Of a stretch of DNA of 64,000 bases, positions 149-49,184 are shown piece by piece. The first letter of the stretch is position 1. Every line of letters begins with the position of its first letter. Where the stretch lies: the IMG/VR virus record IMGVR_UViG_3300037483_000643; one strand, given 5' to 3'. Position numbers and translations under genes: made by a program. Source of the stretch: an uncultured virus (IMG/VR IMGVR_UViG_3300037483_000643). Its lineage: Duplodnaviria; Heunggongvirae; Uroviricota; Caudoviricetes. The notes below the pieces were generated by a model that saw only the letters and a program-made list of their open reading frames with translations, was not told where the DNA came from and made no database searches.

Positions 149-1129
149 GTGACGTCACCAACTTACGATGAGCCCGCGTTCGTCTGTGTCTATGGCCCCT
201 CGGGCTGGGGCAAGACTTCGGAGGTGATCTACACCTTCCCTGACGCGCTGTTCATTGCCGCCTCCGGTGCGCTCGCCCCGTGGACCTGGATCGGAGTTCC
301 GTACAAGCCGTACGCGGTACGTACCAGTACGATCATGGATGTGACAGAGCTTCTCAAGAAGTACAAAGAGGGCAAGTACGTTGTACGATCGAAGACACGC
401 GGCACTCTACAATTCTCTGCGATCGTCTGTGACGACTTCAGTTTGGTGTCAGACACGACGTTTGCGGTGATCGACAAGAAATACACCGCTTCGCAGGCAC
501 GCCCGATGTGGGGCGAAGTTCGTGAAGTGTTGATCGAGTTTCGCGCCATCGCACGTGAAGTCGGCGTGCACGTCGTGTTGACGTGCCATGAACGGGGCCC
601 ACACACACACGAAAAAAAGGGTTATGTTCGTGGTGGGCCATCACTGCCAGGCACGATGCCCGAGGATCTTCCGAAAAGTTGTGACATGGTGTTGCGTGTG
701 CAGCCTGAACCATCGTGGCCGGTTTGGGGAATGGCGTACAGCGCCAACGAGCAGACGGAAGATTACGTCGAGAAGGATCGATACCGTTTCGTCCCGTCTA
801 CGTTGAAGCGTGCGCCGATGAATCTCGGTGAGCTACTTCGGCGCGGCTTCGGTGATGGCAGCGGCGTCTGTGGCACCTCCAAGTTTCCGATCCGGCGCGC
901 TACTGGTCTGGAATGGATGGATCAGGTCGTGGAGAAGATCGCGACGCGTCTTGGTACGCTGCCGCCAGGCTCCGACGAGTCGAAAGCCGTGCTAGCGGCG
1001 TTCGCGCCTCTTGTGCAGAAGAAGTACAACGCTGATCCCAAGCTGATCAACTGGTGTTTCCGCGATGCGCTAGCGCGTGCATGGCTACGCACCGCACATG
1101 CTGCAGAGTCGTCGCCGTACACTCGTTGA
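149..1129 (+). CDS. AAA_24/Sak4-like P-loop ATPase (single-strand annealing protein)
   Basis: Walker A YGPSGWGKTS, Walker B IVCDD, 'HVVLTCHE' motif; DUF669-like SSB gene close downstream, as in Sak4 modules. Confidence 0.7.
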   Translation: MTSPTYDEPAFVCVYGPSGWGKTSEVIYTFPDALFIAASGALAPWTWIGVPYKPYAVRTSTIMDVTELLKKYKEGKYVVRSKTRGTLQFSAIVCDDFSLVSDTTFAVIDKKYTASQARPMWGEVREVLIEFRAIAREVGVHVVLTCHERGPHTHEKKGYVRGGPSLPGTMPEDLPKSCDMVLRVQPEPSWPVWGMAYSANEQTEDYVEKDRYRFVPSTLKRAPMNLGELLRRGFGDGSGVCGTSKFPIRRATGLEWMDQVVEKIATRLGTLPPGSDESKAVLAAFAPLVQKKYNADPKLINWCFRDALARAWLRTAHAAESSPYTR

Positions 1130-1141
1130 GGGAGGAACACA

Positions 1142-1414
1142 ATGTCTGAGACTGGCGATCATGTTGGTGAAGACTTCGTTGGCGCCGCTCTTGACGCAGA
1201 TCTGAAGGAGGTGAGGGAGGAGAAGGAGAAGGAGAAGACATACGAGATTAAGTTCTTGGATAGGGACATCCGCGTGTTTCTGCAGGCACGTGGAATGAAG
1301 GTCACGCGTGCGGTGATCGACCTGATCAACCAGGAATGCTACGACACCATCATGCTTGCGATCGGGCGCTGCAGGGACAACAAGCGCGTTACGCTGATGC
1401 CGCACGACTTCTAG
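1142..1414 (+). CDS. histone-fold protein (bacterial-type, short alpha3) with acidic N-terminal extension
   Basis: helix1 DRDIRVFLQARG, loop MKVT, long helix2, C-terminal KRVTLMPHDF matching the histone RxTxxxxD signature; strong RBS GGAGG. Confidence 0.75.
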   Translation: MSETGDHVGEDFVGAALDADLKEVREEKEKEKTYEIKFLDRDIRVFLQARGMKVTRAVIDLINQECYDTIMLAIGRCRDNKRVTLMPHDF

Positions 1415-1492
1415 TAGTGAAGTAACGTCCTGACGTACTGCAACACGACAGCAGTAAACTGTAGTAACACCAGTAACGGAGATCCACCGAAC

Positions 1493-2083
1493 ATGGCCGA
1501 AAACGATAGTTGGAGCATCGAGCTGAATCTGTCGGGGCGTAAGGAGTTCGTTCCTAGCGAGGGCATCGATCGCGTGCCGAGTGGCCCCTACTCCGTGCTC
1601 ATCGAGAAGACTGCTCAGGTGCCGAAGAAGGATGGCGACGGCCCCGACAACATCCTGTTCTATCTGAAGGTCACGGAGCCTGGCGCCGGTCTTGGCAAGA
1701 AGCTGCGCGTCTACCTGCCGATCGATCCTACCGCCAACGAACTGATCGCCGACAAGTGGTTTACGGTGGCGTGCGCCGTCGCCAGGGATCCGGCGGCCCT
1801 GCAGAAGGGCAAGCTCAAGCACTCGCCATCGCTGTACAACGGCAAGTCGTGCTGGGTGTACGTTCAGGACAACCCTGGCGTGTCCAAGGATCCCAAGACC
1901 GGGAAGGATCGCCAGAACTTGCAAAACGTTTCGTTCACGTCGAAGGTGCAGTACGACAAGTTCAAGGCCGAGCAGGGCGCGTCGGGCGCCGGCACCTCGG
2001 GTGGCGCCGCTTCCGGCGGTTCGATGACGGTGACGAACGGCAACGCAACGCCGCATGCCGCAGAGTCGGTCGAGCTGGACTAA
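1493..2083 (+). CDS. DUF669-like single-stranded DNA-binding protein
   Basis: VPSGPYSVLI motif, Gly-rich flexible tail with acidic end, Sak4-like neighbour. Confidence 0.6.
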   Translation: MAENDSWSIELNLSGRKEFVPSEGIDRVPSGPYSVLIEKTAQVPKKDGDGPDNILFYLKVTEPGAGLGKKLRVYLPIDPTANELIADKWFTVACAVARDPAALQKGKLKHSPSLYNGKSCWVYVQDNPGVSKDPKTGKDRQNLQNVSFTSKVQYDKFKAEQGASGAGTSGGAASGGSMTVTNGNATPHAAESVELD

Positions 2084-4264: not shown

Positions 4265-4663
4265 ATGCTAGTCAACGAGACAACACCAACGGTGCGCGCC
4301 CCACATCAAGATCTTTGGGCCTTGACGTATGATCACAGCGCCAGTTGGATGCGCCGAATACTGTTAAATCCAGCAGGTTGGGTAGTGCTAGAGCGCGAAG
4401 ACGAAACGATCGTCGGTTGGGCGTTGGTGGCGCCGATGTCGGGGTACACTCCGCGATCGGCCGTTCTGCCCACCAACTGTTTCGAGTCTGTGGGCCTTAG
4501 CGTGTTTGTACATGAAAGGTACCGCCGGCAGGGGCGTGGATTGCGACTAGTGCAGTTGGCTACATCGTTGGCCAAGAGCGAATTTCCCAACCGGCGCATT
4601 GCTGTTGGTCCTGTAGACGAAGCCGGCGTTAGGCTGTTTCGACGCGTTGGGCTACTTACGTGA
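4265..4663 (+). CDS. GNAT family acetyltransferase
   Basis: Acetyl-CoA binding motif VFVHERYRRQGRG; stop overlaps the PolA start (GTGA). Confidence 0.7.
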   Translation: MLVNETTPTVRAPHQDLWALTYDHSASWMRRILLNPAGWVVLEREDETIVGWALVAPMSGYTPRSAVLPTNCFESVGLSVFVHERYRRQGRGLRLVQLATSLAKSEFPNRRIAVGPVDEAGVRLFRRVGLLT

Positions 4664-7365
4664 GTTACCGTCCCGAAGATCATGGCGCGCGCTGCACAGA
4701 CTGCATTCTCTCGTACCGGAGAGAAGGCGGGCCCGTGCAATCAGAGATGTGCGGCGACGTGTTGATCGTTGGCGAGGCGCCCGATAAAGACTCATGCAGC
4801 GTAAATAGGCCGTTCGTCGGTTTGTCTGGTGAAGAGCTGCAGCGCGGTATTCAGATTCATGGTTACCGCCGCGCCGATTTCTCAATCACGTCAGTTTTGT
4901 TATGCAGACCGCCAGGCAACGAACTTGCCAAACTCACGTATGCATGGCGTGCAGAAAACAATCGGCGCAAGAAGCTAAATCGCGGCCTTGGTGAAGATGA
5001 GGAGAAGTATGTCTTGCTGCCACACCCGATAGAGTGCTGCCGCCCGAGGCTGTTCCGTGAGGTGGCAAAGTTCTCCAAAGTCATCGTACTAGGCGACACC
5101 GCATACAAGACCGTCACGTCTTCTAATGAGAACGTGACGCACATGCGTGGATCACCGCACGAGGGGTGGTTTCACGGTACGGATGGCTTTGTAGAATGTG
5201 ACACGTCGTCGGAGGAGTCAAGGCGCGCATCCGAGCTGATGCGTCCCGAGAGATCGACCTCTATTCGGATCGTGCCTACCTTTCACCCTGCCTACGTCCT
5301 TAGACAGAGGATGTGGACGCACGTGTTTCGCGCCGACCTCGGGCGGGCCATGCGTTGGTTTTCCGGCCGACTCGGCTGGACCGACCCCGAGTACATCACT
5401 CGGCCTTCGCCGGCTGCCCTGCGGCGCTTCCTGGCGCGTCCAGAGCGCTTCTTCGCCTACGACCTGGAGACGGACGCCAAAGAGCCGCTAGTAGCCAAGA
5501 TCCGCCTATTCGGCGTCGGTACTCGTGACAAGGTGATGGTGGTACCGTTCCTGTCGACAGACGGCCACACCCTGTTTTACACAGAAGCCGATCTGAAAGA
5601 AATCAAAGACATCTTCCGTGAGTGGTTAACATCTAGGCGAAGTGCAAAGTTCAGTTGGAATGGCATCACGTATGATGCGCCAGTGATCCTGCAGCAACTA
5701 GGCTGCGGCATTTCGCGGCACATCGACGGTATTTTGATGCATCACGACGTTGAGTCAGAGCTGCCACATAAGCTCGGCTTCGTCGGCACCGAGTTGACAG
5801 ACGTCCCGGCATGGAAGCAAAAGTCTGAAGACCCCTTGAATTGTGATGATCCGACGTTGCAGTACCGTAACTCGCGTGACGTTGCCGTAACTGCTGCACT
5901 GTTGGAACCGCTAGAGCGCGAGCTTGCGCTACGGGACCAAACTGCTGTTTGTAAGAAGGATCACAAGATTCAGCAGATCTGCGCCGGCATGCACCGTGTT
6001 GGCATGCTGATCGATCCGGTTGCACGCAACGAACACGACAAGAGGCTACTTGCGCAGATCGTGAAGTACCGGAAGATCTGCCGCGATGTTGTAGGTGACG
6101 ACAAGTTCAACCCCAACTCGCCGCCGCAGATCGCTGAACTGCTGTTCGGGACCTGGGGCTTGCCACCTGTCGAGCTGTCGGAGAAGACCGGCGCCCCGTC
6201 GACAGGCGACGATGCGTTGAGAACGTATCGTGTCGAATACAACCTTACAGACGATCAACGTCGATTCATCGAGGCGTTGCGTAAGGTCCGCCTAGCTGTC
6301 AAACTTAGAGGCACTAACATCGTCAAGTTTCGGCGCCGCACCGAGAAATTGCCTTACGATCCGTGGGCGGAAGACAGTGAAGAGACAGAAGCGGAACGCA
6401 CGTACCGCAAGAAGAAAGACGTTGAGAAGTATGGAATCTTACTTGACGATGGCCGCGTGCACAGTTCGTTCACGACACACGTCCCAGTTACAGGTCGCCT
6501 AGCATCCAACTCGCCCAACCTGCAGAACGTCAAGATCAACCTGCGCAATATGTTCGTTGCGGCGCCAGGCAACGTGCTAGTTGGCGCTGACGCCGATCAG
6601 CTAGAGTTGCGGTACGCCGCTGGCCGCTGGCGCATGCAGAAGATGTTGGAGATCCTACGGGACGGGCGCGATCCACACCACGAAACGGCGCTCGCATGCT
6701 TCGGGCATGCTGCCGAAGAACAGTATGCGTTGGCGGTGGAGTGGGCCAAAACGGCGAAGAAGCCTGACGGCAAAAAGTGCAAGCCGAAAGAGTTTCCGGC
6801 ATACGGTCGTGTGCGCGACTTCTCGAAGCGGCTGCGCTACGCGGTGCAGTATGGTGCAGAAGACAAGACAGTGCACCGCGTGATCAGTTCGACAGAAGAT
6901 GATCACGGCAACTTGATCTATGCCGACGTCAGTTTGACTGACACGTCGACACGTCGCCGTCGTCTGCTAGATGCCGATCCTGAGTACGAACAGGGCTGGG
7001 CAGAAGAAGTTGCGCTGTGGCGCAAAAACGGTTACTTGCGCGAGCGCATTTGGGGCCGCCGCCGTGACTTCTTGAATGGTGAAGAGTTCAACGAAATTGT
7101 GAACTTCGAGATCCAGTCCGGTTGCGCTGCGCTCATCAATGAAGCGACGTTTGATCTAGTAGACGCGATCCCGTTTGAGAAGTGGGGACCCGGCACTGGT
7201 CTGATCAATCAGTGTCACGACGCACTCTGTATAGAATGTCCCGAGTCTGAGGGGAAACGTGTTGCCCAGATCATGACGGAGTGCATGACGCGCACGTATC
7301 CAGGTCTCGACGTGCAATTTAAAGCAGAAGCGAAAATCGGCAAGACGTGGCTAGACGTCAAGTGA
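4660..7365 (+). CDS. polA: family A DNA polymerase with N-terminal family-4 uracil-DNA-glycosylase-like domain and 3'-5' exonuclease
   Basis: UDG part: CxxC, GEAP, PFVG, CRPP, TFHPAY. Exo: YDLET, WNGITYD. Pol: TGRLAS..PNLQN, motif A DADQLELR, motif B RDFSKRLRYAVQYG, motif C CHDA. Confidence 0.92.
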   Translation: MSYRPEDHGARCTDCILSYRREGGPVQSEMCGDVLIVGEAPDKDSCSVNRPFVGLSGEELQRGIQIHGYRRADFSITSVLLCRPPGNELAKLTYAWRAENNRRKKLNRGLGEDEEKYVLLPHPIECCRPRLFREVAKFSKVIVLGDTAYKTVTSSNENVTHMRGSPHEGWFHGTDGFVECDTSSEESRRASELMRPERSTSIRIVPTFHPAYVLRQRMWTHVFRADLGRAMRWFSGRLGWTDPEYITRPSPAALRRFLARPERFFAYDLETDAKEPLVAKIRLFGVGTRDKVMVVPFLSTDGHTLFYTEADLKEIKDIFREWLTSRRSAKFSWNGITYDAPVILQQLGCGISRHIDGILMHHDVESELPHKLGFVGTELTDVPAWKQKSEDPLNCDDPTLQYRNSRDVAVTAALLEPLERELALRDQTAVCKKDHKIQQICAGMHRVGMLIDPVARNEHDKRLLAQIVKYRKICRDVVGDDKFNPNSPPQIAELLFGTWGLPPVELSEKTGAPSTGDDALRTYRVEYNLTDDQRRFIEALRKVRLAVKLRGTNIVKFRRRTEKLPYDPWAEDSEETEAERTYRKKKDVEKYGILLDDGRVHSSFTTHVPVTGRLASNSPNLQNVKINLRNMFVAAPGNVLVGADADQLELRYAAGRWRMQKMLEILRDGRDPHHETALACFGHAAEEQYALAVEWAKTAKKPDGKKCKPKEFPAYGRVRDFSKRLRYAVQYGAEDKTVHRVISSTEDDHGNLIYADVSLTDTSTRRRRLLDADPEYEQGWAEEVALWRKNGYLRERIWGRRRDFLNGEEFNEIVNFEIQSGCAALINEATFDLVDAIPFEKWGPGTGLINQCHDALCIECPESEGKRVAQIMTECMTRTYPGLDVQFKAEAKIGKTWLDVK

Positions 7366-17964: not shown

Positions 17965-19161
17965 ATGAGTGATCCAGTCGTAGCGATCATCATGCCTGTC
18001 CGTGAGTGGGTGCACACCAACACGAACCGTTCGATCTTGCGACTGCGTATTCCGCGACCTGTCCATTACCTCGATAAGACTGATGCGCCTGTCGAGGCCG
18101 CGCGCAATCTGCTGACTGCCGCCGCCTTGCGCATCCCCGACCTGACGTACCTTCTGTTCATTGATGATGACATGATCTTCAATGAAGATGCTTTCGAGCG
18201 TCTAGCAGCGCACGACCTGCCGATCGTAGGTGGTTTGTGCCACAACCGCCGGCCTCCGTACATGCCGATCCTAATGCGGGAGTACAACAAAGGCTACGCG
18301 TTCGTGTATGACTATGAACGTGAGGTAGACTCCAACGGCTTGATCGAAGTTGATGCCACTGGCGCGGCGTTCTTGCTCGTGAAGCGTGAAGTCTTCGAGA
18401 AGATCGCAACGACTGGCGAAGAGCCGTTTGCGATCCGTGGGCCTGGTGAAGATGTTTCGTTTTGTCGTCGCGCGAAGGAGCTGGGGTATCCTATCCACGT
18501 GGATACTACGGTCGAGATCGGTCACGTAGGTGAGGTCACCGTAACTTCCGACTTCGCGCGGCGTAACCGAGATTTCGTAATCTTCCCGTGGATCGATGTT
18601 GTGAAGCGCCCACCTGCGCGTGAGTCCGACATCGAGCTGCCTCCCGCACGGCTGCGCGGTGACGAGATCACACTAGAAGCGCGCCGCGCACGTGCGCGAT
18701 ACGTATTCGCGGGCAAGGAGATCGCAAAGCGAGTTCGTGTCGGTGAGGTCTTGGACTTCGGTTGCGGTACTGGCTACGGCTGCCCCATCATCACCCGTGA
18801 GACGAGCATGCGGGGCTCTAACATTATCGTTGGCGGTTACGATCCTGATCCTCTCGCAATCGCGTTTGGGCGCGAGACGTTTTGGCCCCGGCTGACGACA
18901 GAAGCCGCGGAAGCACTAGGTAGTGGCATCTCTGCAATCACGTGTTTCAATGTGTTGCAGCACGTGCCTGACGTTGTGAACGATACAACGCTCAAACAGT
19001 TGATCGAACTATCTCCGGTTGTGATTGGCTCTCTTCCTTGGAGTGCGGAGTATGAGATTGATCCACCCGGATCGGTAACTGTTAACCTCTATGGACAGGC
19101 CGCAGACGGCACTATCGTAGATGACTCCGCACAAGACCTGATCTTTGTGATCACGCGCTGA
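17965..19161 (+). CDS. GT2 glycosyltransferase fused to a class I SAM-methyltransferase domain
   Basis: LFIDDDM, ATGAAFLLVKREVF, GEDVSFC; C-terminal VLDFGCGTGYG. Confidence 0.75.
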   Translation: MSDPVVAIIMPVREWVHTNTNRSILRLRIPRPVHYLDKTDAPVEAARNLLTAAALRIPDLTYLLFIDDDMIFNEDAFERLAAHDLPIVGGLCHNRRPPYMPILMREYNKGYAFVYDYEREVDSNGLIEVDATGAAFLLVKREVFEKIATTGEEPFAIRGPGEDVSFCRRAKELGYPIHVDTTVEIGHVGEVTVTSDFARRNRDFVIFPWIDVVKRPPARESDIELPPARLRGDEITLEARRARARYVFAGKEIAKRVRVGEVLDFGCGTGYGCPIITRETSMRGSNIIVGGYDPDPLAIAFGRETFWPRLTTEAAEALGSGISAITCFNVLQHVPDVVNDTTLKQLIELSPVVIGSLPWSAEYEIDPPGSVTVNLYGQAADGTIVDDSAQDLIFVITR

Positions 19162-20114
19162 TGACAGACATCATTCACTCGCCTGGATCGCCTATCAGCG
19201 CGTTGGTGCATGCGTGCAAACGTATCGCTGCGCGAGATGCTACTGTGTTCATCGCAGGTGAAACAGGCGTCGGCAAGGAAGTCTTCGCACAGTATATCCA
19301 CGAAAATAGCGCATGTGCGCAAGGTCCGTTCGTGCCTGTGCATTGTGCAGCGATACCAGAAAACTTGATCGAATCGGAGCTGTTCGGACACAAGCGCGGT
19401 GCGTTCACGGATGCGAAATGCGACAAGCCCGGTTTGATCGCGCGTGCGGAAGGGGGCACGCTGTTTCTTGACGAAATCGGCGAGTTGTCGCCAGGTCTTC
19501 AAGTAAAGCTCTTACGCGTCTTGCAAGAGCGCTGTTACGAATCTGTTGGTGCCACTTCATCGACACAAGCTAACTTCCGGCTGGTCACCGCAACGAACAA
19601 AGATCTTGCTGTGGAGGTCGAAACAGGCAAGTTCCGACAAGATCTCTACTACCGTTTGTATGTTTGCCCGATTGAGCTTCCACCATTGCGCAAGCGGCGT
19701 GCAGATATTGAACCGCTATTCCGGCACTTTTGGACTCAGCACGGTGAAACACGCGGTCTAGATCCTGCGATCTTCGATCTGTTCAAGCGGCACAGCTGGC
19801 CTGGCAACGTGCGCGAACTGAAAAACGTGGTTGAACGCCTATCTGCATGCGCAGAAGGCGTAACTATCGAAGTCGAGCATTTGCCTAGTTACCTTCGATT
19901 CGTAGCGACCCCTACTGTACCGGAGATCGTGATCGGCACGAAGATCGAAATCAGCCGACCGATTGACCTTCCCAGAATGCTGCAAGAGCTGGAAGATGCG
20001 TATATCAACGCGGCGCTAACACGCACGGAATGGAACAAGAAGGAAGCCGCCGCGCTGTTAGGTTTAAACCGTACTACGCTAGTTGAGAAACTAAAGAGGC
20101 GCAAATGGCGATAG
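19161..20114 (+). CDS. sigma54-dependent activator (bEBP AAA+ and Fis HTH) without regulatory domain
   Basis: GETGVGKE, ESELFGHKRGAFTDA, LFLDEIGE, FRQDLYYRL, WPGNVRELKN, LGLNRTTLVEKL. Confidence 0.92.
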   Translation: MTDIIHSPGSPISALVHACKRIAARDATVFIAGETGVGKEVFAQYIHENSACAQGPFVPVHCAAIPENLIESELFGHKRGAFTDAKCDKPGLIARAEGGTLFLDEIGELSPGLQVKLLRVLQERCYESVGATSSTQANFRLVTATNKDLAVEVETGKFRQDLYYRLYVCPIELPPLRKRRADIEPLFRHFWTQHGETRGLDPAIFDLFKRHSWPGNVRELKNVVERLSACAEGVTIEVEHLPSYLRFVATPTVPEIVIGTKIEISRPIDLPRMLQELEDAYINAALTRTEWNKKEAAALLGLNRTTLVEKLKRRKWR

Positions 20115-20989
20115 AAGCGGCAAAGTTCATCGTTGTAGCACCACCATACGCCGCTTCGGGTGGCGTGCGCGTGCTGCACAAGCTAAGCGGTACGCTTGCA
20201 CGTTTGGGCTATTGGGCACGACTCGTAATCTTGGACAACGCCGGCCCACGCGCAGCCGAAGTTGGCGACCTTGGAAAAGAAAGCGCTTTGGCACTGTTAG
20301 AAGCTGACGAGGCGGCCATCTCGGAAGCGATCGTCATCTATCCTGAGATCGTCACATCGAACATTCTAGGCGCACGTCGTGTTGTTTGGTATCTGCTGAA
20401 CCGCGACGGCGCGTTGGGACGTGGGAAGATCAGCGCAGGCCCTGACGATTACTTCTTGTCACACTCTACTGGTTTCAGTGATCCACGCACAAATCGTATT
20501 CTTCACTGTGCGGACTTCAACGCCGCGTTTTACCCAAGTGATCCACTTATTCCGCAGGCTGCGCGGCACCTCACGTTGACGTACATAGGAAAAGGTGGGC
20601 TCTACGGACCTTGCTTCCTGGCGCCCGGTTCCGTCGCGATCAGTAACGAGTGGCCCAGGTGCCCTGAAGAGCTAGCGCGTCTACTGCAGGTAACACGCTA
20701 CTTTTTCACGTGGGATGCATGGTCAGCACTCAACACTGAGGCCGTTCTGTGTGGCGCGATGCCTGTCATCATGCGCTGGGCTCCGTGGACGTCGGCAGAT
20801 CTCCAGCGTGACGAGACCGGAGGACTAGTGCCATTCCTCGACTACGGTGAACACGTGTTGGGGGGAGAATGGAAAATGTTGCTCTTTTCGAAACAGCGCA
20901 TGTCGTTGATTCGAGGGATAACCGACCTAGACGCGTCGTGGAATGCTCGCGTCAAAGTGTTCGCGGAAGACGCTATCGCGCACTGGTAG
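20105..20989 (+). CDS. putative glycosyltransferase-like (WavQ-like) protein
   Basis: SGGVRVLHKL, IVIYPEIV..N.LGA.RVVWYLLN, EAVLCGA. Confidence 0.5.
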   Translation: MAIEAAKFIVVAPPYAASGGVRVLHKLSGTLARLGYWARLVILDNAGPRAAEVGDLGKESALALLEADEAAISEAIVIYPEIVTSNILGARRVVWYLLNRDGALGRGKISAGPDDYFLSHSTGFSDPRTNRILHCADFNAAFYPSDPLIPQAARHLTLTYIGKGGLYGPCFLAPGSVAISNEWPRCPEELARLLQVTRYFFTWDAWSALNTEAVLCGAMPVIMRWAPWTSADLQRDETGGLVPFLDYGEHVLGGEWKMLLFSKQRMSLIRGITDLDASWNARVKVFAEDAIAHW

Positions 20990-21002
20990 AAGAGAGGCGC
21001 TG

Positions 21003-21704
21003 ATGACACCACTAGACGCAATACGTCAGGCTGCACATGCACCACGACTCGACGCCGACACTGAACGTTCGCTCGCAATTCTTGCACAAGCTGGCGACTC
21101 CAGCGCCGCGCGCAAGGTCGTAGAATCGAATCTCAGTTGGGTGATCTCGTCAGCGTTCAAGTACAAGCGGCGAGGTGTAGACGACACGACGTTTCAAGAT
21201 CTTGTGTCGGAGGGCACGCTAGGGCTGTATCACGCACTCGACAAGTTCGATCCGTATCGGAACAATAGGTTTAGCACATACGCGCTGCCGTGGGTGCGTG
21301 TGAAGATGCAGAAGGTGCTGATGCTGGTCAACAAGGATTCAGCGATGTGCGTGCCGATGGAATCGGGTGTGTCGGCGCACGGCATGCACGCTACGGTTGA
21401 CGATAGTGGGGGACAAGGCGCCAAGCTGATCAACGTCTTGGAAGACAGGGCCCCCTCACCAGAAGAGGCCGTTGCCGCCGCTCGCCGATCAGCGGCAGTC
21501 CAGTGCGTGCTGCAGGAGTTGCGTCTGAAGCCCCACGATCACGACCTGATCGAGCACCGCCTGTCGGTCGGTGCGTTGGAGCGCGATTCACTCGAAGCTA
21601 TCGGCAAGCGGCACAACATCACGCGAGAAGGTGTCCGACAGCGCGAGCTGCGCTTGAAGAAGCTGTTGCGCCAACACTGCCGCAAACTGCGGGAGGAAGT
21701 ATAG
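21003..21704 (+). CDS. sigma70-family (RpoH-like) RNA polymerase sigma factor
   Basis: Region 2 DLVSEGTLGLYHALDKFDP..RFSTYA; region 4 SLEAIGKRHNITREGVRQ. Confidence 0.85.
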   Translation: MTPLDAIRQAAHAPRLDADTERSLAILAQAGDSSAARKVVESNLSWVISSAFKYKRRGVDDTTFQDLVSEGTLGLYHALDKFDPYRNNRFSTYALPWVRVKMQKVLMLVNKDSAMCVPMESGVSAHGMHATVDDSGGQGAKLINVLEDRAPSPEEAVAAARRSAAVQCVLQELRLKPHDHDLIEHRLSVGALERDSLEAIGKRHNITREGVRQRELRLKKLLRQHCRKLREEV

Positions 21705-29535: not shown

Positions 29536-29898
29536 TTACTTGATCTTCTTCATCAGCGCGATCACGGCGCGTTTGACGGCGCGCGTTGGCGACGGGCCTT
29601 GCGCAACGCTACATCGTGAGGCGTCGAGGCCAACAGTGCGCTTGTATGCGATCTTGGAAGGCCCGCTGCCGCGATACGTTGCAAGCTTGCCAGCGTGCGA
29701 GAGCATACATGCCTTTGCCTTGTATGCGCCGCCCGATTCGTAGGTCCGTGCGATTTCGAGATGGATTGACGCCTTCTTCTTTGCACCCAAGAAGTGCGAC
29801 GTTTCCCATGACGGCGAAGTGGTCACACGGAACAGATGCCGCCGAGCCTTCTTAGCACTGCGCTTCACTTCACCGAGACCGCGCTTTCTAGTTGCCAT
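29536..29898 (-). CDS. basic paralog family A member
   Basis: YKAKAC...CSVAQGPSPTRAVKRAV. Confidence 0.65.
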   Translation of the reverse strand: MATRKRGLGEVKRSAKKARRHLFRVTTSPSWETSHFLGAKKKASIHLEIARTYESGGAYKAKACMLSHAGKLATYRGSGPSKIAYKRTVGLDASRCSVAQGPSPTRAVKRAVIALMKKIK

Positions 29899-29899
29899 A

Positions 29900-30223
29900 T
29901 TACGGCCGCCCTTTAGGTAATGGACACGCAACCCGCCGACCCCAGTTACGCAACGCAACAACTGCACGCGTTGTACAGCCGTGCTTGCGCACGACACCTG
30001 CCATACGCGCGTTGAACGAGATCACACGCCGCGCTAGTGCGCAGTCGGCTTTCGTCCAAGTGCTGTCGCGCTTTTCGAGCAACTTGGCGAGATGTGGCAG
30101 ACGTCGGCGCGTTGCGGCGAACGATGCCAGACGACTACGTGGATCTTGTGCCCAAGCACGGATCTCCGCAGGCGTCATGTTGACGCTCTTACGAAACTTC
30201 GCGATCGGACACGCCTTGGTCAC
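29900..30223 (-). CDS. DUF3140-like protein
   Basis: F.KSVNMTPAEIRAW ... ALRNWG. Confidence 0.55.
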   Translation of the reverse strand: MTKACPIAKFRKSVNMTPAEIRAWAQDPRSRLASFAATRRRLPHLAKLLEKRDSTWTKADCALARRVISFNARMAGVVRKHGCTTRAVVALRNWGRRVACPLPKGRP

Positions 30224-30225
30224 GC

Positions 30226-30627
30226 CTACCTCTTCCGCTTCTTCAACGATCCAGCAGACACACGATCGATGCACGTGTGCAGCGCACGATCGAACGCACT
30301 ATGCCCACGCTTTGCGTGTTTCGCGGCTTGTGGGAAGCACGCCTTGAACGCATCAGCCCGAAGTCCGCCCAAGTGTTGCTTGCGCTTCTTTTCGTATGCC
30401 ACCGACTGTTCTGCAGTCGGAGGAGGTCCAAGCCAATCCATGTTCGCAGACGGTGTTACTGGACCGCGCACGACACTGCCAGAGTGTATGTGCTTGGTGA
30501 TGTCCTTGGCCAGCTCGGGATCAGCACCCCGCACAAGCTCACGAAGTGCTTGAAGTGACATGGACTGAGTAGCAGACTTCGGCCACCCTAGCGCACGTGC
30601 AGCACGATCATGTATCGAGCCTGCCAT
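30226..30627 (-). CDS. basic hypothetical protein
   Basis: Operon position; paired Cys and basic tail. Confidence 0.5.
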   Translation of the reverse strand: MAGSIHDRAARALGWPKSATQSMSLQALRELVRGADPELAKDITKHIHSGSVVRGPVTPSANMDWLGPPPTAEQSVAYEKKRKQHLGGLRADAFKACFPQAAKHAKRGHSAFDRALHTCIDRVSAGSLKKRKR

Positions 30628-38489: not shown

Positions 38490-38831
38490 TTACTTCAACT
38501 CGCGCTTCTTGCCGAGGTTGATCAACGCCTTCTTGACAGCTGCCGTTGGCGTGCGCCCGTACGCATCCTCACCGCATGCCTTCCTGCGGTGCACCGCAAG
38601 GCTAGCAGATCCCCGGTTTTCACCGCTCCTACCCGACTTCGCAGTACACGCCCAAGCCCAGTAGCCAGGCCGATCGGAAGTGTTGGAGGGGTTCACGCCG
38701 CGCTGCACGAACACGCGAACATGCACCGACTTGGCACGGCCATTCTGAAACTTGTTGCGGTGCCGAGAGATCTTGCGGGACCGCGACTTGACGCTGATAT
38801 ATCCGTACGACTTGCGACGCCGCTTGGCCAT
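38490..38831 (-). CDS. basic paralog family A member
   Basis: YWAWAC...CGEDAYGRTPTAAVKKAL; RBS AGGAG. Confidence 0.65.
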   Translation of the reverse strand: MAKRRRKSYGYISVKSRSRKISRHRNKFQNGRAKSVHVRVFVQRGVNPSNTSDRPGYWAWACTAKSGRSGENRGSASLAVHRRKACGEDAYGRTPTAAVKKALINLGKKRELK

Positions 38832-39192
38832 GTTCACGTCTCCTAGATTAGAGCAACTTGGACAGCAACCGCAGCGCATGTATTCCGGTGTTGAAGCATT
38901 GTGGGCAAATCTTCGTGTACACAGGTCCGATCCTGATCTCGACTGTCGCTGTGTTCATTCCGCAGACGCATAGTTGACCTAGCAACTGCTGAGACTCAGC
39001 GTCCACGTCGCTTGCCGCTGCAGTTGCACGGACGGCGAGGGCCGTTGAGGGCACCGAGCCGACGCTGCGGCGGCGCGAACGCTTGCGAGAGGGCACGCAT
39101 GAATTTCTGCGCGGGAGTCGGCTTCGGCGGCTGTCCAGGCGGGCCATTTCCGTTTCCGTTGTTGTTGAAGATCATTGACGTTACCTCACCGC

Positions 39193-40282: not shown

Positions 40283-41188
40283 TCAGATGTTGCCGTACGA
40301 CAGAATGTCGACGTACTGGTTTGTCAACGTTGCAGCGCCAAGATCTGACAAAGTGACGATCATGGCATCACCACGGAAGAGGCCCACCCCATCGCGCAGC
40401 TCCAACACCGGATACGGCGTCGAAGTACCGGAAGCCGCCGGCCACGTCACGTCGAAGGAAGTGAAATCGGTGTAAGCGATCGTGCTGCCGTCCGAACCGA
40501 GATCGAAGTCGTCGATCCCTTGCAGGATGACGCGCATCGTGGTTGGTACGGCCAGGGTGCTAACTCTAAGACGCAGTACCAATCGTGTTGGTACAGCGGC
40601 AAATTCGGCGAGGCCATTTTGCGGAATCGGGCTGCCGGGCAGCGCTGTGTTGTAGCGGAATGCGTTCTTCCACGGGAAGCGCAGCGGCAGCGCGGCCGTC
40701 CAGGCATTGGGCGACGTACTTGGGTTGGCGTCAGCGACGATCTTCAACCGTACACGCTGCAGCAACACCTCGTGCGCCGCTTCAGGCCAGATCAACATGC
40801 TGTCGTCTTCGTCGGCAACAATCAACTTGGCGAGACCCCCACCAAGCCAGCCAAACGGCAGCCCCCACGTCACCGACTGGAATCCGTTGGCGAGCGGACC
40901 CTTCACGACCTGACCAGGCGTCAGCCCCAGCGTGACAGCACCTTCAACACCCTTCATCGTCGTCATTACAGGCAGCTGTGAATGCGGATGCAGCCCAATG
41001 ATCCGACCTGAGACCTGTTGCGTGATCGGCGTGCCGACGATGAGGCCGGTTGCCCCAGGGTCTTGCGTTAGGATCGCATTATGCAACTGTGTGTTGTCGA
41101 AGAACGATTGCAGCGGAAAAATGCTCTTGAGCACCGCTGCGTTATTCCTAGTGATGATGCAGGCGCCAGCCATTCTATCTCTCCTCAT
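40283..41188 (-). CDS. beta-rich putative minor capsid/vertex protein
   Basis: Alternating beta-strand pattern; directly follows the three capsid-like paralogs. Confidence 0.45.
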   Translation of the reverse strand: MRRDRMAGACIITRNNAAVLKSIFPLQSFFDNTQLHNAILTQDPGATGLIVGTPITQQVSGRIIGLHPHSQLPVMTTMKGVEGAVTLGLTPGQVVKGPLANGFQSVTWGLPFGWLGGGLAKLIVADEDDSMLIWPEAAHEVLLQRVRLKIVADANPSTSPNAWTAALPLRFPWKNAFRYNTALPGSPIPQNGLAEFAAVPTRLVLRLRVSTLAVPTTMRVILQGIDDFDLGSDGSTIAYTDFTSFDVTWPAASGTSTPYPVLELRDGVGLFRGDAMIVTLSDLGAATLTNQYVDILSYGNI

Positions 41189-41205
41189 TCTCTAGTAGCG
41201 CTGCA

Positions 41206-42270
41206 TCAACGAGAAATCAGTTCAGGATCGATCGGAACGCCGAAGGAAGTGATCGGAACATCTCTGTAACCGACCATCCCGATCCCGAGCTGCGGCGTGA
41301 ACATGCGCTGAGTTGCCAGGTCCAAGGTTGTGTAGTCGACGTCGGCGATGTAGTAACCATTGGGCGCCAACATCGTGTTTGCATTCCACGAACGGTTACC
41401 ATGATGGAACAAGACACCGACTGGCGTCTGATCACGCACGCCGAGGATACCATTCTCCCCGTACAACCGCACGTGGCAGTTACGCGCAGCTCCCTGCGCA
41501 TCGTCCATCGCGTTACCGTTTGCGTCAACTCCCGTCAGCGCTGCAGAGAAGCGCTGCACGAGAAGTTGCTGTGCTGTCTGATTCTTCAGATCGGTAGGCA
41601 ACGACTGTTCAGTAAGAACAGAGCCTTCTGTAGTAGAGGCTAGAGCTGTGATCCACCGTGCAGCATACGGGACATGAGACATTGCCGGCAGCTTGGCCTT
41701 GTCGCCGATCGCCCGCCCGAGCATCGTCACTGCCGGCAGCACTGAATCTGGGGGCGATGCGAACAGCCCCGATCGATTGTCGTAGATGAATCGGACGTCG
41801 AGGCGCGCACCACGCGGCAGAAGCATCGGCTTTGGCAGCCGCCACACGTGGAATGCAGTAGTGTGCGTCGAGGCGCCAGCGAACGACAGATCCGTTTCAA
41901 CGCCGATGTCGCGCGGCTTGCCAAGCAGTTCAAGCGGCATGTCGTAGCAGATCGGCACCGGCCCGACGTTGATCGTAGTGCGTAGCAGTGGAAAGGGCGA
42001 TGAAATGGTGCGGAATCGCAGCTCATCCACCAGCATCGGCGTGTGGAACGGGCAGTACAGCCCTTCCGGCACCGCCACGGGGCCACTATTGGCGGTAAGC
42101 GTGATCGTACCAGTATCGCTGTCGAAGACGAACGGCGTCAACGCTTCGTTCGCATCGACCACGCCGTGATGTGGCCCGAAGTTCTTACCGCTTGAGCTGT
42201 ACTGCCTGGCGACCGTCGCAGCCGCTTGTGCATGCCGGCGACGCTGCGCAAGTGCTTGTGCACGGGTCAC
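41206..42270 (-). CDS. tandem jelly-roll-like capsid protein paralog 3
   Basis: PMLVDELRF, LPKPMLLPRG, VPYAARW, SLPTDLKN, MVGYRD. Confidence 0.55.
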   Translation of the reverse strand: MTRAQALAQRRRHAQAAATVARQYSSSGKNFGPHHGVVDANEALTPFVFDSDTGTITLTANSGPVAVPEGLYCPFHTPMLVDELRFRTISSPFPLLRTTINVGPVPICYDMPLELLGKPRDIGVETDLSFAGASTHTTAFHVWRLPKPMLLPRGARLDVRFIYDNRSGLFASPPDSVLPAVTMLGRAIGDKAKLPAMSHVPYAARWITALASTTEGSVLTEQSLPTDLKNQTAQQLLVQRFSAALTGVDANGNAMDDAQGAARNCHVRLYGENGILGVRDQTPVGVLFHHGNRSWNANTMLAPNGYYIADVDYTTLDLATQRMFTPQLGIGMVGYRDVPITSFGVPIDPELISR

Positions 42271-43190
42271 GGCGCCACCTCCTTACGCGATCCGACAAGC
42301 GAGATCATTGGAATACCCGGATTCTGCAAGGCTGGCGTCTTCGACAGCGTGACTTGGTAGTTGCGACCTGGATCAACACGCTGTCTTAAAGTCCAGGTCG
42401 GATCCTGCGGATGGAAGATCGCTTCCCAATCCACCGCCGGCTGCGTCGGGTTTGACGTGATCGACCGATTGTACGGATCTATGATTCCCACTTTCACCGC
42501 GTTTGCTTGCGACAGACTGTAATACCGCTTGGGCGTTGAAGTTGCGGCACCGGCAAGACCAAGAATCGCTCCGACGAAGCGCTGAGTTGTGATCACCTTG
42601 CCGCACTCGTTGCTAAGGTCGCGCTCCAACGACTTGCGAACTCCGGTGTCACCAGACACAGCTGGCACGAAGGCCGTCACGTACGGCACGTCGATTTCAG
42701 CTGGGGTCTTGCCATCAGTCAGGTTTCCGATAACCGCGCATCGAGCGGTGATTGACGCGCCAGTCACAGCAGCAGTGAACGATGCATCGAATCGATTGGT
42801 ACGGAAAAAGGTACACTTGATCCCGCCTCCCGGTGCCACATACATCGGCGCCGGCAGGATCCAGCGATAGGTTGTGTACGTCGTGGTGATGCCGTCACCG
42901 CGCGCACCAACCTGACCGAGCGCGTTCAGATCGTTGTAGTACCGATCGTACGGCGGTGCGAAATTCCAGATCGGCACGAAATCATTGGTGATCGCGAAGC
43001 GGCCAGCTTCAATCTTGGCCCACACGATGCCGCCGAGGTCGCCGGCCGACGCCGGAAGCGAAGCCGTGAAGACGATCTCACGCACGAACATCGCCTGAGA
43101 CTGCGGCGCCTGTAGCTTCGTGAGGTCGAGTACGCCCGTTGCGCCAGCGGCGAGGGAGACGGAATCGGAGAGGATGATCGGTGCGTGCAT
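42267..43190 (-). CDS. tandem jelly-roll-like capsid protein paralog 2
   Basis: AMFVREIVF, LPAPMYVAPG, VPYVTAF, SLERDLSN, LVGSRK. Confidence 0.55.
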   Translation of the reverse strand: MHAPIILSDSVSLAAGATGVLDLTKLQAPQSQAMFVREIVFTASLPASAGDLGGIVWAKIEAGRFAITNDFVPIWNFAPPYDRYYNDLNALGQVGARGDGITTTYTTYRWILPAPMYVAPGGGIKCTFFRTNRFDASFTAAVTGASITARCAVIGNLTDGKTPAEIDVPYVTAFVPAVSGDTGVRKSLERDLSNECGKVITTQRFVGAILGLAGAATSTPKRYYSLSQANAVKVGIIDPYNRSITSNPTQPAVDWEAIFHPQDPTWTLRQRVDPGRNYQVTLSKTPALQNPGIPMISLVGSRKEVAP

Positions 43191-43193
43191 TGT

Positions 43194-43817
43194 CTAGCCC
43201 CTTCGTCCAGCAAAAGCACCACCGAGAAGATAGGCGCCTACTGCGATGGCAACAACTGTAAGCCACGTCGCGCTTGCAGGCGAAAGCGTTGGAGTGCTGG
43301 CGCTTGGTGTAACATTCGCAGACGTTAGCTGTGTTCCGACGAATGCTGGACCAACAACACCCGGATTTTTACAGCCTGGTGTGCATGGAAGACTAGGGGC
43401 CCACGCCACATTTGGGTCAAACGGGCCACTGATGTCAGGACAGTCGAACCACACTTGACCTGGTGGACAAGTACGCGCTAACGCCTGCTGCACTGCTTGT
43501 GGCGCCGCCACTAGCGGTGACGACGTTCCCACAGGTTGGATCCTGTAGATCGCGTTCGGCTGAACAGCTGTAACACCAGGAACGCTTAGGGCAACAGCCT
43601 TGATTTGATCGGGGAACGCTACACCCAACCCAGTGACACGGTACGCCGTACCGCTTCTATTCAAGGCCGTTACATTGACCGTTCCTGAAATCGACGCCCT
43701 GAACGCCGCCTGTAGTGCTGCCGCGCTTGCAGTACCACTGACGATCGCTTCGCCTTGTACATAATCGACGCCTGGGTAACCCCAAGCATCAGCGGCGGAG
43801 AAGTCATTGAAGTTCAT
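43194..43817 (-). CDS. C-terminally anchored membrane protein
   Basis: TM WLTVVAIAVGAYLLGG + RR. Confidence 0.55.
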   Translation of the reverse strand: MNFNDFSAADAWGYPGVDYVQGEAIVSGTASAAALQAAFRASISGTVNVTALNRSGTAYRVTGLGVAFPDQIKAVALSVPGVTAVQPNAIYRIQPVGTSSPLVAAPQAVQQALARTCPPGQVWFDCPDISGPFDPNVAWAPSLPCTPGCKNPGVVGPAFVGTQLTSANVTPSASTPTLSPASATWLTVVAIAVGAYLLGGAFAGRRG

Positions 43818-43832
43818 ATGCCCCTCCGATTG

Positions 43833-44867
43833 TTACGCGATCTCGCGGTAGCCAACCATCACCATCGCGAGGTTGGCCTTGTAGGCGTTTGCGGCGTTCG
43901 TGAATCCCTGTGTCGTCAGCGTAGAGAGCAAGTACGAATTGGGCGGCATGTGCATCGGCGCCTCAATGCTAAATGACGGCGGGGGGAAGACAACACCCAT
44001 CGGCGTCGCTTGCTTCACGATGCCGACACCATGCGAGTTGCGGATCTGGCATAGCACAAGATCTCGCGCGTCTGGCGAGTCACCGAGAGAGACGAAGGAG
44101 AAAGCACCACTCTGCGTCTGCGTCGACAAGACGACTCGACCGATCAATCGCCGCAGGATCAGCGCAGCACCCGAGTTGTTGACGAGATCCTTTTCTGTCG
44201 AGTCAACACGAGCCGGAGCATTTGCTAGTGCGGTGCCGATGTCCAATGCCGATGGACTCCAGACGGCCAGATACGGCAGCTTCCGAACACGCGGAATCGA
44301 CAGCACCGCGCGCCCGCTGATCCCGACGTTGACAGTGATGTCTTGTGGAACGATCGACTTGTGATTCAACGAAATGTTGAGCTGATCTTGCGGCAGCAGA
44401 TAGATCGGTTCGTCAAACGGCATCCGACCGAAGGCGGCACCGTAAGTGTCTTGAATGAAGGTACCGCCGCTGACGCCAGCGAACGCGTTGTTTTCGTCAC
44501 GCGAGTTGACGAGAGGTGCCAAAGCGTGCAGCGGCACACCAGCCGACGTGATCTGGTAGTTCTGATATGCCATCTGCAGCTCGATCATCAGACCGTGTGC
44601 AGTGGTCTGGGAGCCGGAAGTTGGCACAGTCGTAAGAGACCACTTCAGTTCGTGGATCTCCAACGGCACAGGCAGTGGATTGCGGAAGGCATCGCCAAGA
44701 ACGATGTTGCTCTGTCCCGACGAAAGCGTCACCTGTGCATTCAGATGCACAGGGACAGCGATCATGGCAGGATCAACATTGAGCTGACGGGCTGCGGGGG
44801 AGAGCTGCGCGGACTGCGGTGCGATGATCGATGCCACTTTTTGTACCTCCAAGGGCGCTAGCTGCAA
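43833..44867 (-). CDS. tandem jelly-roll-like capsid protein paralog 1
   Basis: PLEIHELKW, FDEPIYLLPQ, LPYLAVW, STEKDLVN, MVGYRE; RBS GGAGG. Confidence 0.55.
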   Translation of the reverse strand: MQLAPLEVQKVASIIAPQSAQLSPAARQLNVDPAMIAVPVHLNAQVTLSSGQSNIVLGDAFRNPLPVPLEIHELKWSLTTVPTSGSQTTAHGLMIELQMAYQNYQITSAGVPLHALAPLVNSRDENNAFAGVSGGTFIQDTYGAAFGRMPFDEPIYLLPQDQLNISLNHKSIVPQDITVNVGISGRAVLSIPRVRKLPYLAVWSPSALDIGTALANAPARVDSTEKDLVNNSGAALILRRLIGRVVLSTQTQSGAFSFVSLGDSPDARDLVLCQIRNSHGVGIVKQATPMGVVFPPPSFSIEAPMHMPPNSYLLSTLTTQGFTNAANAYKANLAMVMVGYREIA

Positions 44868-46134: not shown

Positions 46135-46845
46135 TCAGCCTCTCACGTCCCTCTTGGTCATGACGCCCATCAGGCACGTCAGAAGCGAAGCCGCGCCCGC
46201 ACCGTCAGTCGTGCGGAACACGAGCGACGCGCTGCCAGCGACGCCGACGACGCCTTCGAGCGAGTCACCACGAGCGACGAGGATCGGCACCTTGAACCGA
46301 CGGCTGACGCCGAGGGCACCGTTGTTGACGAGGCCCTGAGTGACGGCGTTGGCGGTGGAGCTGATCGAGCCGAAGATGCCGCCGGCAGCGGGGAACGCCC
46401 ACACCGGACCCTGCACTTCGACGTTGCTGGAGTTCTTGAACTGGAAGAACACCTTGGACGAGACGTCGCACGCTTCGAGCTGCGTCGCACCCCACGTGTT
46501 CAGCGTACCAGTAGATCCGATGCCGCACTGCTCAAGCGAGAGACCGATCGACTTGATTGCAGCGTCGCCGAGCGCCGAGCCCAGCTCGCCAGCCTTGTTG
46601 AGGTTGGTCGTCACCTCGGTGTAGGTGAGCTGATGCGCCTGCGCGACGGTGATCGAGCTGCCCTTGAGCGCAGGAATCGTCTGGCCCTGGGGGTTCGTGA
46701 AGATCTTCTGCTGCCCGCTGCCGCCGTGCGCCAGCACGATCGCGCTGTACACGTGCTCATCGTGGATCGCCGCCTTGCCCGGAACGGCGGTAGGGCTGCG
46801 GAAGCGGCCATCAGGGAAGTAGGTTGCGGAAGTGATGTCGGCCAT
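46135..46845 (-). CDS. putative major capsid protein (single jelly-roll-like)
   Basis: IFTNPQG...TNLNKAGEL, FKVPILVARGDSL; strongly GC3-biased codons, AAGGA RBS, long downstream hairpin. Confidence 0.55.
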   Translation of the reverse strand: MADITSATYFPDGRFRSPTAVPGKAAIHDEHVYSAIVLAHGGSGQQKIFTNPQGQTIPALKGSSITVAQAHQLTYTEVTTNLNKAGELGSALGDAAIKSIGLSLEQCGIGSTGTLNTWGATQLEACDVSSKVFFQFKNSSNVEVQGPVWAFPAAGGIFGSISSTANAVTQGLVNNGALGVSRRFKVPILVARGDSLEGVVGVAGSASLVFRTTDGAGAASLLTCLMGVMTKRDVRG

Positions 46846-47649: not shown

Positions 47650-47799
47650 CTACTTCTTGAGCTTGGCTTTCATGCACGCGTGGTACGCACCCTTGCGCCC
47701 GCTCTTGTGCGCGATCACCTTGCACGAGTGTGCGGCAGCCGTGAACCGGCGCTGCTCCGCCGTCTTGCCGCCGCCCCTACGCTTCCGACGCTTCGCCAT
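47650..47799 (-). CDS. very basic 49-aa core-like protein (family B)
   Basis: MAKRRKRRGGG...RFTAAAHSC...YHACM; RBS GGAGG. Confidence 0.6.
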   Translation of the reverse strand: MAKRRKRRGGGKTAEQRRFTAAAHSCKVIAHKSGRKGAYHACMKAKLKK

Positions 47800-47876
47800 G
47801 TGTTTTCCTCCACTGTACGACTTCGTGTCGTATCCACTCAGCACTACGATCTTGGCTTCGGCTGCCACGTTGCGCC

Positions 47877-48161
47877 TCACTTCAATGCTTTCCTAGATGC
47901 TAGAGAACGCAGCGCCTTTCGGAGTGCCGCGGTTGGCGTGCGCGCGTCGTGTGATTCGCCACAGCGCATAGGATTCCACGACCGTCCAGATCTTCCTACG
48001 CGATGCCTAACTACACAAGCACGCGCACCGTAGCCGTCTTCACCACGTGCAATTACAGCGTCAATCTTGACGTGGCGCCCTGCCTGCCGTGATCCGGTAC
48101 CAATTCTGTAGTACGTGGATCGAACTTTCTTGCCGCTTCGCCTAAGCGCACCGTATGCCAT
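47877..48161 (-). CDS. basic paralog family A member
   Basis: YGARAC...CGESHDARTPTAALRKAL. Confidence 0.65.
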   Translation of the reverse strand: MAYGALRRSGKKVRSTYYRIGTGSRQAGRHVKIDAVIARGEDGYGARACVVRHRVGRSGRSWNPMRCGESHDARTPTAALRKALRSLASRKALK

Positions 48162-48177
48162 GTCGTCCCCCAACGAT

Positions 48178-48570
48178 TTACTTCTTCTTGAGCAGCATCG
48201 AGATCGCAATGAGGCCGGCGACGGCGACACCGCCGAGGATCAACATTTGCTGCGTCTTGGCGGCACTCTGTGTGGCGGTGAGCTGCGTAATGGCGCCAGA
48301 CTGCTGCGCCATGGCGGCAGTCTGCGCCTGCTGCCGCGCAAGCTCCGTCTGTGCCTCTGTCCTGGTGATGCCAGTGTACGTGTTGGCGCCGGCAGTGATG
48401 AGGTTGGCGGTGCCGGTCAGAAACCCACCCCAGTCGAAACTTTCGCCTGTTGCATCATCTTCGGCGAATCCGCCAAAGTCGGCGAGCGACAGCGGCGCCT
48501 GCCCGTACTGTCGATAATCACGGAAGTTCGAAAATCCGCTAAGGGTAACAACGTCGGCGTATGCGCTCAT
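48178..48570 (-). CDS. C-terminally anchored membrane protein
   Basis: LADFGGF, TM + KKK. Confidence 0.6.
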   Translation of the reverse strand: MSAYADVVTLSGFSNFRDYRQYGQAPLSLADFGGFAEDDATGESFDWGGFLTGTANLITAGANTYTGITRTEAQTELARQQAQTAAMAQQSGAITQLTATQSAAKTQQMLILGGVAVAGLIAISMLLKKK

Positions 48571-48596: not shown

Positions 48597-49184
48597 TCAG
48601 TCGATGATCCATGCGTCGAGGTAGACACCAGGCGGCGGCTGCCAACCGAGATACGATGACTCGACAGTGGTATCCATGCCGACGACTTGCGCGCCAGGAT
48701 CGTGGGGATGATTTGCTTTCTTCGGGATCAGCGCGACAGGATACACGTGCACGTAATCATCACGCGATCTGCCATACGCGCGCGCCCCGACCGTGAATCC
48801 TACTGATCTGGCGAGAGAGGCAACAAGAGCTGTTGCATCGTCACAATCGCCACCACACGATCCAGACTCGCACATGTCCAACGTGCGATCGGCGCGTACA
48901 AAGAAGTCAACGAACTTGGGATCGGCGCGGTACGGGAGACCTCGGGAGAGGCCCTTCACTAGTGGCGTACCGTGCTTCACTGCCTCGAAGATGGCTTGCA
49001 GCTCGCACTCATCGTTACGTGCCTCGCACTCATAGACGATCTTGAGCGCTGTGGCACGTACGCGGGCGAGCGCCCGGGCATCCTTCGTGGCCTCTCGAAT
49101 CAGGCGTGCTAGATGACGGATGGCCTGTTCTGCTACCGCCCGTCCGCTACCGTTGTCTGAGAGTCGATACGTGTCGACGCGCAA
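48597..49184 (-). CDS. transglutaminase-like cysteine protease
   Basis: GDCDD, HVY, MDTT candidate Cys-His-Asp triad; first gene of the virion operon. Confidence 0.75.
   Translation of the reverse strand: MRVDTYRLSDNGSGRAVAEQAIRHLARLIREATKDARALARVRATALKIVYECEARNDECELQAIFEAVKHGTPLVKGLSRGLPYRADPKFVDFFVRADRTLDMCESGSCGGDCDDATALVASLARSVGFTVGARAYGRSRDDYVHVYPVALIPKKANHPHDPGAQVVGMDTTVESSYLGWQPPPGVYLDAWIID

Follow-up and report, generated by a model that had tools for sequence, protein, structure and literature searches.

The subject of this analysis is a predicted histone encoded by an uncultured virus (IMG/VR record IMGVR_UViG_3300037483_000643), of whose 69-kb contig a stretch of 64 kb, hereafter the window, was analysed. 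A preliminary description of the locus had noted a histone-like pattern ending in RVTLMPHDF, located between Sak4-like and SSB-like genes. The open reading frame (ORF) at 1142..1414 (+) is confirmed: it encodes 90 residues (pI 5.1), ends RVTLMPHDF-stop and is assigned, from the ORF, homology and predicted structure, to the face-to-face (FtF), or alpha3-truncated, histones. It starts 13 nt past the stop, at 1129, of a gene (149..1129, +) for a Sak4-like single-strand annealing ATPase of 326 residues (phrog_124, E = 1e-12; AAA_24). A Shine-Dalgarno sequence, GGAGG (1131..1135, +), lies directly 3′ of that stop and 6 nt upstream of the histone ATG. Downstream, a gene for a 196-residue DUF669-like single-stranded DNA-binding protein (SSB; 1493..2083, +) is assigned via homologues: the protein itself matches no Pfam or PHROG family, but because 6 of its 25 aligned homologues match DUF669 (PF05037, best E = 4e-6), the SSB-like label holds at the family level. 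The profile of its family also matches PrgE (8s4s, E = 6e-4).

No terminator-like site was found on the plus strand between Sak4 and SSB. The 78-nt spacer separating the histone and SSB genes (1415..1492, +) contains four copies of AGTAA(C/A), at 1421, 1453, 1463 and 1472, out of 16 on the whole plus strand, and might hold an operator. The GC content at third codon positions (GC3) of the histone gene is 0.74, inside the range of 0.52-0.86 spanned by 17 measured genes of the genome, which points to a long-resident gene.

Fold and class of the viral histone

The protein has no match in Pfam or PHROG and no close relatives in two large protein collections. However, phmmer aligned it without gaps to HLp of Leptospira perolatii (PDB 9qt0) over residues 41-90 (E = 0.0015), and in the Atlas it falls among clusters of histones (top feature score 0.91); at the sequence level, both provide non-circular support for its identity as a histone. 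A search with the core in 301 genomes of one bacterial phylum, a set centred on a Phycisphaeraceae genome, gave matches in 19 of them, all short histones ending RxxxNxRxTxxxxD. The profile built from these matched 2584 proteins; among the 120 listed, 99 of at most 90 residues were retained and 21 longer ones, mostly doublets, were dropped. Some doublets among the homologues (P0030, P0031, P0035, P0050, P0077 and P0091) have hydrophobic, signal-peptide-like N-termini. Against a profile of 118 cellular homologues, with the query left out, the viral protein scored 36.2 bits, compared with -1.3 for its reversed sequence and a maximum of 7.6 among shuffled sequences (5000 shuffles, 3894 reported), and it was the sole significant match among the window's 1291 six-frame segments. 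This score is partly circular, since the members were found starting from the query.

When supplied with an alignment, AlphaFold predicted a histone fold with a pLDDT (predicted local distance difference test) score of 93-97 for residues 41-90, a value driven by the alignment; from the single sequence, the pLDDT was 51. In the model, the histone fold (residues 34-90; 1241..1414, +) consists of helix 1 (40-49), helix 2 (56-79) and a helix 3 of three residues. The short helix 3 and shortened helix 2 of the model place the protein among alpha3-truncated histones, and the motif RxTxxxxD is present as R82-V-T84-L-M-P-H-D89. Block means of pLDDT for residues 1-30 are 47-52; the N-terminal extension is thus probably flexible. 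Structural comparison of the model ranked HLp first, followed by HTkC and HBb, with modest scores tied within 1 Z unit. The protein is almost certainly a real, highly diverged FtF histone, and the suggestion that the virus encodes a bacterial-type histone with a short alpha3 stands, on the strength of the HLp match and the modelled helices.

The FtF profile is marked by R48, N52, R54, T56 and D61, of which dimer histones, including Bd0055, lack R48 and N52 (PMC11390915). The HLp tetramer, which belongs to a class of histones that wrap ~60 bp of DNA, uses R49, N53, R55 and F63 (PMC12701072), and in HTkC an arginine bridging to the C-terminal carboxyl is required for the tetramer (10.64898/2025.12.06.692711). 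In the viral protein, the tetramer signature is fully kept at an offset of +27 from HLp (R76, N80, R82, T84, D89 and the terminal F90), and the chain stops at F90, the equivalent of HLp F63, directly after helix 3. HLp (PDB 9QT0/9QT1/9QT2) is both the best sequence match and the best structural match: at 25% identity, the two proteins align ungapped with R49/N53/R55/T57/D62/F63 kept and with equal C-terminal ends. HTkC of Thermococcus kodakarensis (PDB 9F2C) shares the FtF fold (root-mean-square deviation 1.6), and its essential R45 would correspond to R76 in an alignment based on the shared motif; HTkC, however, is archaeal, tail-less and cellular. By contrast, the Bdellovibrio dimer histones HBb/Bd0055 are only 13-16% identical to the viral protein. 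The preliminary description named Bdellovibrio and Leptospira as bacteria with short-alpha3 histones; by its residues the protein is of the FtF tetramer type, as in Leptospira HLp, and not of the Bdellovibrio dimer type, R76 and N80 being present. Formally, FtF histones are defined by a torus-shaped tetramer, whether predicted or observed, and the signature residues suggest that the viral protein may form such a homotetramer.

Two other classes were considered and rejected. Assignment to the bacterial dimer histones (HBb/Bd0055) or their viral counterparts (BBVH), all of which lack R48/N52, is ruled out by the presence of both equivalents. The ‘phage histones’ or VTTH, which lack the RxTxxxxD motif and carry a helix for tetramerisation at the C-terminus, are ruled out as well, the viral protein having the motif and no C-terminal extension. 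Virus-encoded FtF histones are already a published class: the VFFH of Caudoviricetes have lysine-rich tails of 5-40 residues (10.1101/2024.12.06.627149). The protein described here is likewise virus-encoded, with a tail in the same length range, but differs in the charge of that tail, lysine richness being usual in the class and not a formal requirement, and perhaps in its source, which may be something other than a tailed phage.

Acidic tail and rebuilt DNA face

The N-terminal extension (residues 1-33; 1142..1240, +), delimited by composition and low pLDDT, holds 11 D/E against 5 K/R, in agreement with the acidic extension of ~30 residues noted earlier. Residues 1-21 include six acidic and no basic residues, whereas residues 22-33 are a balanced mixture of E and K, five of each. 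With the tail defined as all but the last 55 residues (35 residues in the viral protein), its net charge is -7, the most acidic among 41 proteins compared, against a median of +10 and a minimum of -1 in the 118 cellular homologues, whose lowest pI is 9.06. Among published FtF histones, viral and bacterial alike, most tails are basic. Acidic tails are known from a separate class, the coiled-coil histones, where they have been proposed to act as intramolecular inhibitors (PMC11390915).

The surface corresponding to the DNA face is altered at D40, R41, D42, Q48, R56, V83 and M86. Among 158 cellular proteins, position 40 is never acidic, position 41 is S/T in 157 and position 42 is K/R in all 158, whereas the viral protein has D, R and D, respectively. 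This sample combines the 118 homologues with 40 lower-scoring proteins from the bottom of 150 matches listed; it is biased toward one phylum and toward top profile matches, and halophile FtF histones were left out. FtF histones have a conserved helix-1 lysine, K16, and additional ones at positions 12, 14 and 20; in the viral protein, the main position is kept as R44, position 42 is D and 48 is Q, and R41 and R56 are gained. The HLp residues reported to contact DNA are A13, S14, K15, K17, K21, T27, G29, T56 and T57 (PMC12701072). Two of these nine survive, T57 as T84 and K17 through conservative replacement by R44, whereas K15 and K21 have become D42 and Q48. The histone core nevertheless has a net charge of +3, equal to the cellular median, and with the new arginines 41 and 56 this indicates a DNA face that has been rebuilt, not erased. 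The protein is 21-27% identical to 19 cellular proteins, and many helix-packing residues differ. It is further distinguished from HLp by its long acidic tail and by being the product of a viral accessory gene rather than a main nucleoid protein.

Genomic context in this and other viruses

We collected 156 loci with relatives of the Sak4 gene. Both genes are present in 133 of them, and in 124 of the 133 the start of the SSB-like gene is no more than 200 nt from Sak4; these loci come from two overlapping collections and are hence not independent. The closest complete virus, the sister G001 (identity of 59% in the polymerase, 53% in Sak4 and 70% in a capsid candidate), has Sak4 and SSB 51 nt apart and no histone anywhere in its genome, which makes the histone gene an accessory one. 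In a second study, one contig matches positions 1-1134 and 1245-2507 at ~90%, covering the histone core from codon 35, and the gene is therefore not an artefact of one assembly; the tail region, partly masked as repeat, is unaligned. Inserts at the Sak4-SSB junction were also seen in L010, L011, L018, L062, L068 and L118, none of which scores as a histone.

Three motif scans of IMG/VR (14, 15 and 23 stretches) yielded, once nine chance matches had been removed, 24 other distinct viral records with a true histone; the search pattern itself fixes their signature residues. In at least 10 of the 24, from about three lineages, a RecA-family gene lies within three genes of the histone, a lower bound since only selected neighbours were scanned. 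The arrangements are RecA-histone-resolvase (L176, L185, L186, L187 and L253; resolvase confirmed for L176 and L185), RecA-(one gene)-histone-SbcD-like (L179, L180, L189 and L265) and polymerase-SSB-histone-two ORFs-RecA-resolvase (L190). Six of the 24 histones have glutamate at position 40, and five of these directly follow RecA. A long-tailed FtF histone (L195:4731-5057) occurs in a GVMAG-labelled record (giant-virus bin), where host or bacterial contamination is possible. The published viral survey (10.1101/2024.12.06.627149) covers the folds of phage histones and gives no gene context in its available text, in which ‘recombin’, ‘neighbor’ and ‘synteny’ do not occur; our literature searches returned no paper that connects histones of phages with recombination.

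The rest of the genome is clearly viral, with an integrase, an endolysin and a virion protein. The replication arm, to which the histone gene belongs, encodes UDG-PolA, SbcC-like and UvrD proteins and the integrase, and the structural arm lies on the opposite strand (28022-48570, -). Among 70 ORFs scanned against PHROGs, no terminase, portal, HK97 capsid or packaging ATPase was recognised; in G001, a search with Terminase_6N, the only terminase family searched, gave a single 11.6-bit match, falling in a helicase gene. A 236-residue capsid candidate (46135-46845, -) falls in large viral clusters without names; the named families closest to these, at 0.76-0.77, are PM2 P2 and PRD1 P3. This is only a weak lead to a jelly-roll fold, and direct comparison with PM2 P2 did not confirm it. 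Genes for proteins of 300-350 residues (40283-44867) follow the capsid candidate and occur in G001 as well. The virus is plausibly tailless, and the structural arm possibly represents a family, not yet described, of tailless temperate viruses with genomes of 60-75 kb.

Several other genes deserve mention. The DNA polymerase encoded at 4660-7365 is of family A and has a uracil-DNA glycosylase domain at its N-terminus (its G001 copy is the 59%-identical polymerase), and the region 19161-21704 encodes a sigma-54-dependent activator, with no match to a receiver domain, together with a sigma-70-family factor. A 195-residue protein (48597-49184, -), 48% identical in G001, has no family match and a GDCDD...HVY pattern, which we take to resemble that of a transglutaminase-type cysteine enzyme. 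Small, very basic proteins of the structural arm (29536-30627, 38490-38879 and 47650-48230, -), some apparently paralogous, are candidate genome-condensing core proteins.

Possible role in recombination

There is strong support for an alpha3-truncated histone that bears the FtF signature and whose gene is inserted in the Sak4/DUF669-like SSB operon of one viral lineage. Its two flanking genes belong to the families of the Sak4/DUF669-SSB module known from HK620 and ‘Healer’ (Gp63/Gp64), the available accounts of which mention no histone (PMC5928155, PMC13687109). The explanation we favour, tentatively, is that a captured tetrameric histone has been adapted to act weakly and reversibly on viral DNA undergoing recombination, as a loosely binding accessory of the recombination module. 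By analogy with the biochemistry of HLp and HTkC, it would assemble into a homotetrameric ring, with R76 and the F90 C-terminal carboxyl closing it, and its four acidic tails and rebuilt helix-1 surface may weaken or gate DNA wrapping, so that binding is loose and reversible. Gene context suggests that it would be made together with Sak4 and SSB and would act on viral double-stranded or branched DNA in recombination-dependent replication and break repair, where intermediates could be bent or shielded without being locked. In such a role, the histone would be a helpful accessory and not an essential gene. The earlier proposal that it coats replicating viral DNA would agree with the operon and with the recurrence of RecA nearby; the acidic tail and D42 suit it less well.

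A number of observations weigh against the favoured explanation. No histone was found in any of the 156 Sak4 loci, nor in the whole records available for 48 out of 74 viral loci with Sak4 relatives (six near-complete; both positive controls matched), and the Sak4-histone link is seen in this viral lineage only. At least seven other Sak4-SSB junctions have gaps of >380 nt, some holding unrelated ORFs, so the site may merely accept cargo. The viral histone is the longest branch of the tree (3.79), which drift would equally give. Among the 24 viral FtF histones, 14 have no recombinase among the scanned neighbours, three are near a dTMP kinase (L177, L182 and L188) and three lie just after phrog_1362, an unknown protein of 380-395 residues (L178, L183 and L194). 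A lineage-collapsed binomial test of the RecA link (3/14, a rough lineage count that excludes the last three loci found) gives weak to moderate enrichment, with P running from 0.008 to 0.55 as the background assumed rises from 0.03 to 0.2 and significance only below a background of ~0.06. Moreover, the histones of L179, L180, L189 and L265 are strongly basic though RecA-linked, which uncouples acidity from recombinase context, and the acidic viral proteins L181 and L191 are probably from haloarchaeal viruses.

Several of these points would equally be expected if a host histone had been captured behind a strong early ribosome site and carried along under relaxed selection, its adjacency to Sak4 being meaningless and its acidity the result of drift. 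Absence from the complete sister virus and from all other tested relatives, unrelated inserts at the same junction elsewhere, the very long branch and the unaligned tail region of the related strain all suit such cargo. We nonetheless consider it rather unlikely, because all six residues of the signature are retained, and the C-terminal length is exactly preserved, at ~25% identity, the core is kept in the second strain, the GC3 value is that of a long-resident gene and the recombinase context recurs in unrelated phages. Similarly little credence is given to a poison of host chromatin that would form mixed dimers or tetramers with a host FtF histone and, through its acidic tail and D40/D42, loosen the nucleoid for host shut-off or integration access. 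The tetramer residues identical to those of cellular FtF histones, combined with replacement of a DNA-face motif nearly invariant in the 118 homologues, would fit this, and the kept tetramer face is consistent with the ‘dominant-negative mimic’ of the preliminary description; an FtF histone is also essential in Leptospira interrogans (PMC11390915). However, a homotetramer accounts equally well for the kept interface, many helix-packing residues differ as well, and the host may lack an FtF histone altogether, matches having been found in 184 of 401 genomes of the one phylum sampled. A constitutive poison would, furthermore, be costly to a lysogen of this integrase-bearing virus, and although the tree places the viral histone, weakly, among cellular and not viral proteins, such placement is unreliable for a long branch.

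The tail could instead be the functional part. In HK620, Sak4 relies on an acidic C-terminal tail carried by its DUF669 SSB (PMC5928155) and the Sak4/DUF669 pair repairs CRISPR breaks (PMC13687109), so a tetramer displaying four such strongly acidic tails might serve as a hub or DNA mimic that, in the manner of acidic SSB tails, binds Sak4, polymerase or a host defence nuclease, with DNA binding secondary. We regard this as improbable, given that the histone tail is N-terminal and lacks an SSB-like tip and that the tails of other viral histones linked to recombinases are short or basic. Least credible is a virion core protein condensing the packaged genome. FtF histones do wrap DNA, and with no terminase or packaging ATPase recognised the genome may be packaged as nucleoprotein, but the protein is acidic, its gene is part of the replication arm and stands >20 kb away from the structural arm on the opposite strand, that structural arm carries small basic proteins of its own, and the sister virus with the 70%-identical capsid candidate has no histone.

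Were the gene cargo only, it would add one more divergent member to a known histone class. Having kept the tetramer face and changed the DNA face, this natural variant helps to separate oligomerisation from wrapping in prokaryotic histones, and because the outer members of the Sak4-histone-SSB three-protein system have established assays, the system is testable at the bench. A broader view, which we put forward as a doubtful extension, is that viruses have repeatedly recruited FtF histones into recombination operons, with RecA in three phage lineages and with Sak4 here, and have at least twice acidified the helix-1 DNA face. Such ‘recombination histones’ would handle strand-exchange or annealing intermediates and not packaging, in the present case in a tailless bacterial virus with a jelly-roll capsid. 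If so, the histone of a tailless jelly-roll virus would fall outside the groups named in the available text of the viral survey (10.1101/2024.12.06.627149).
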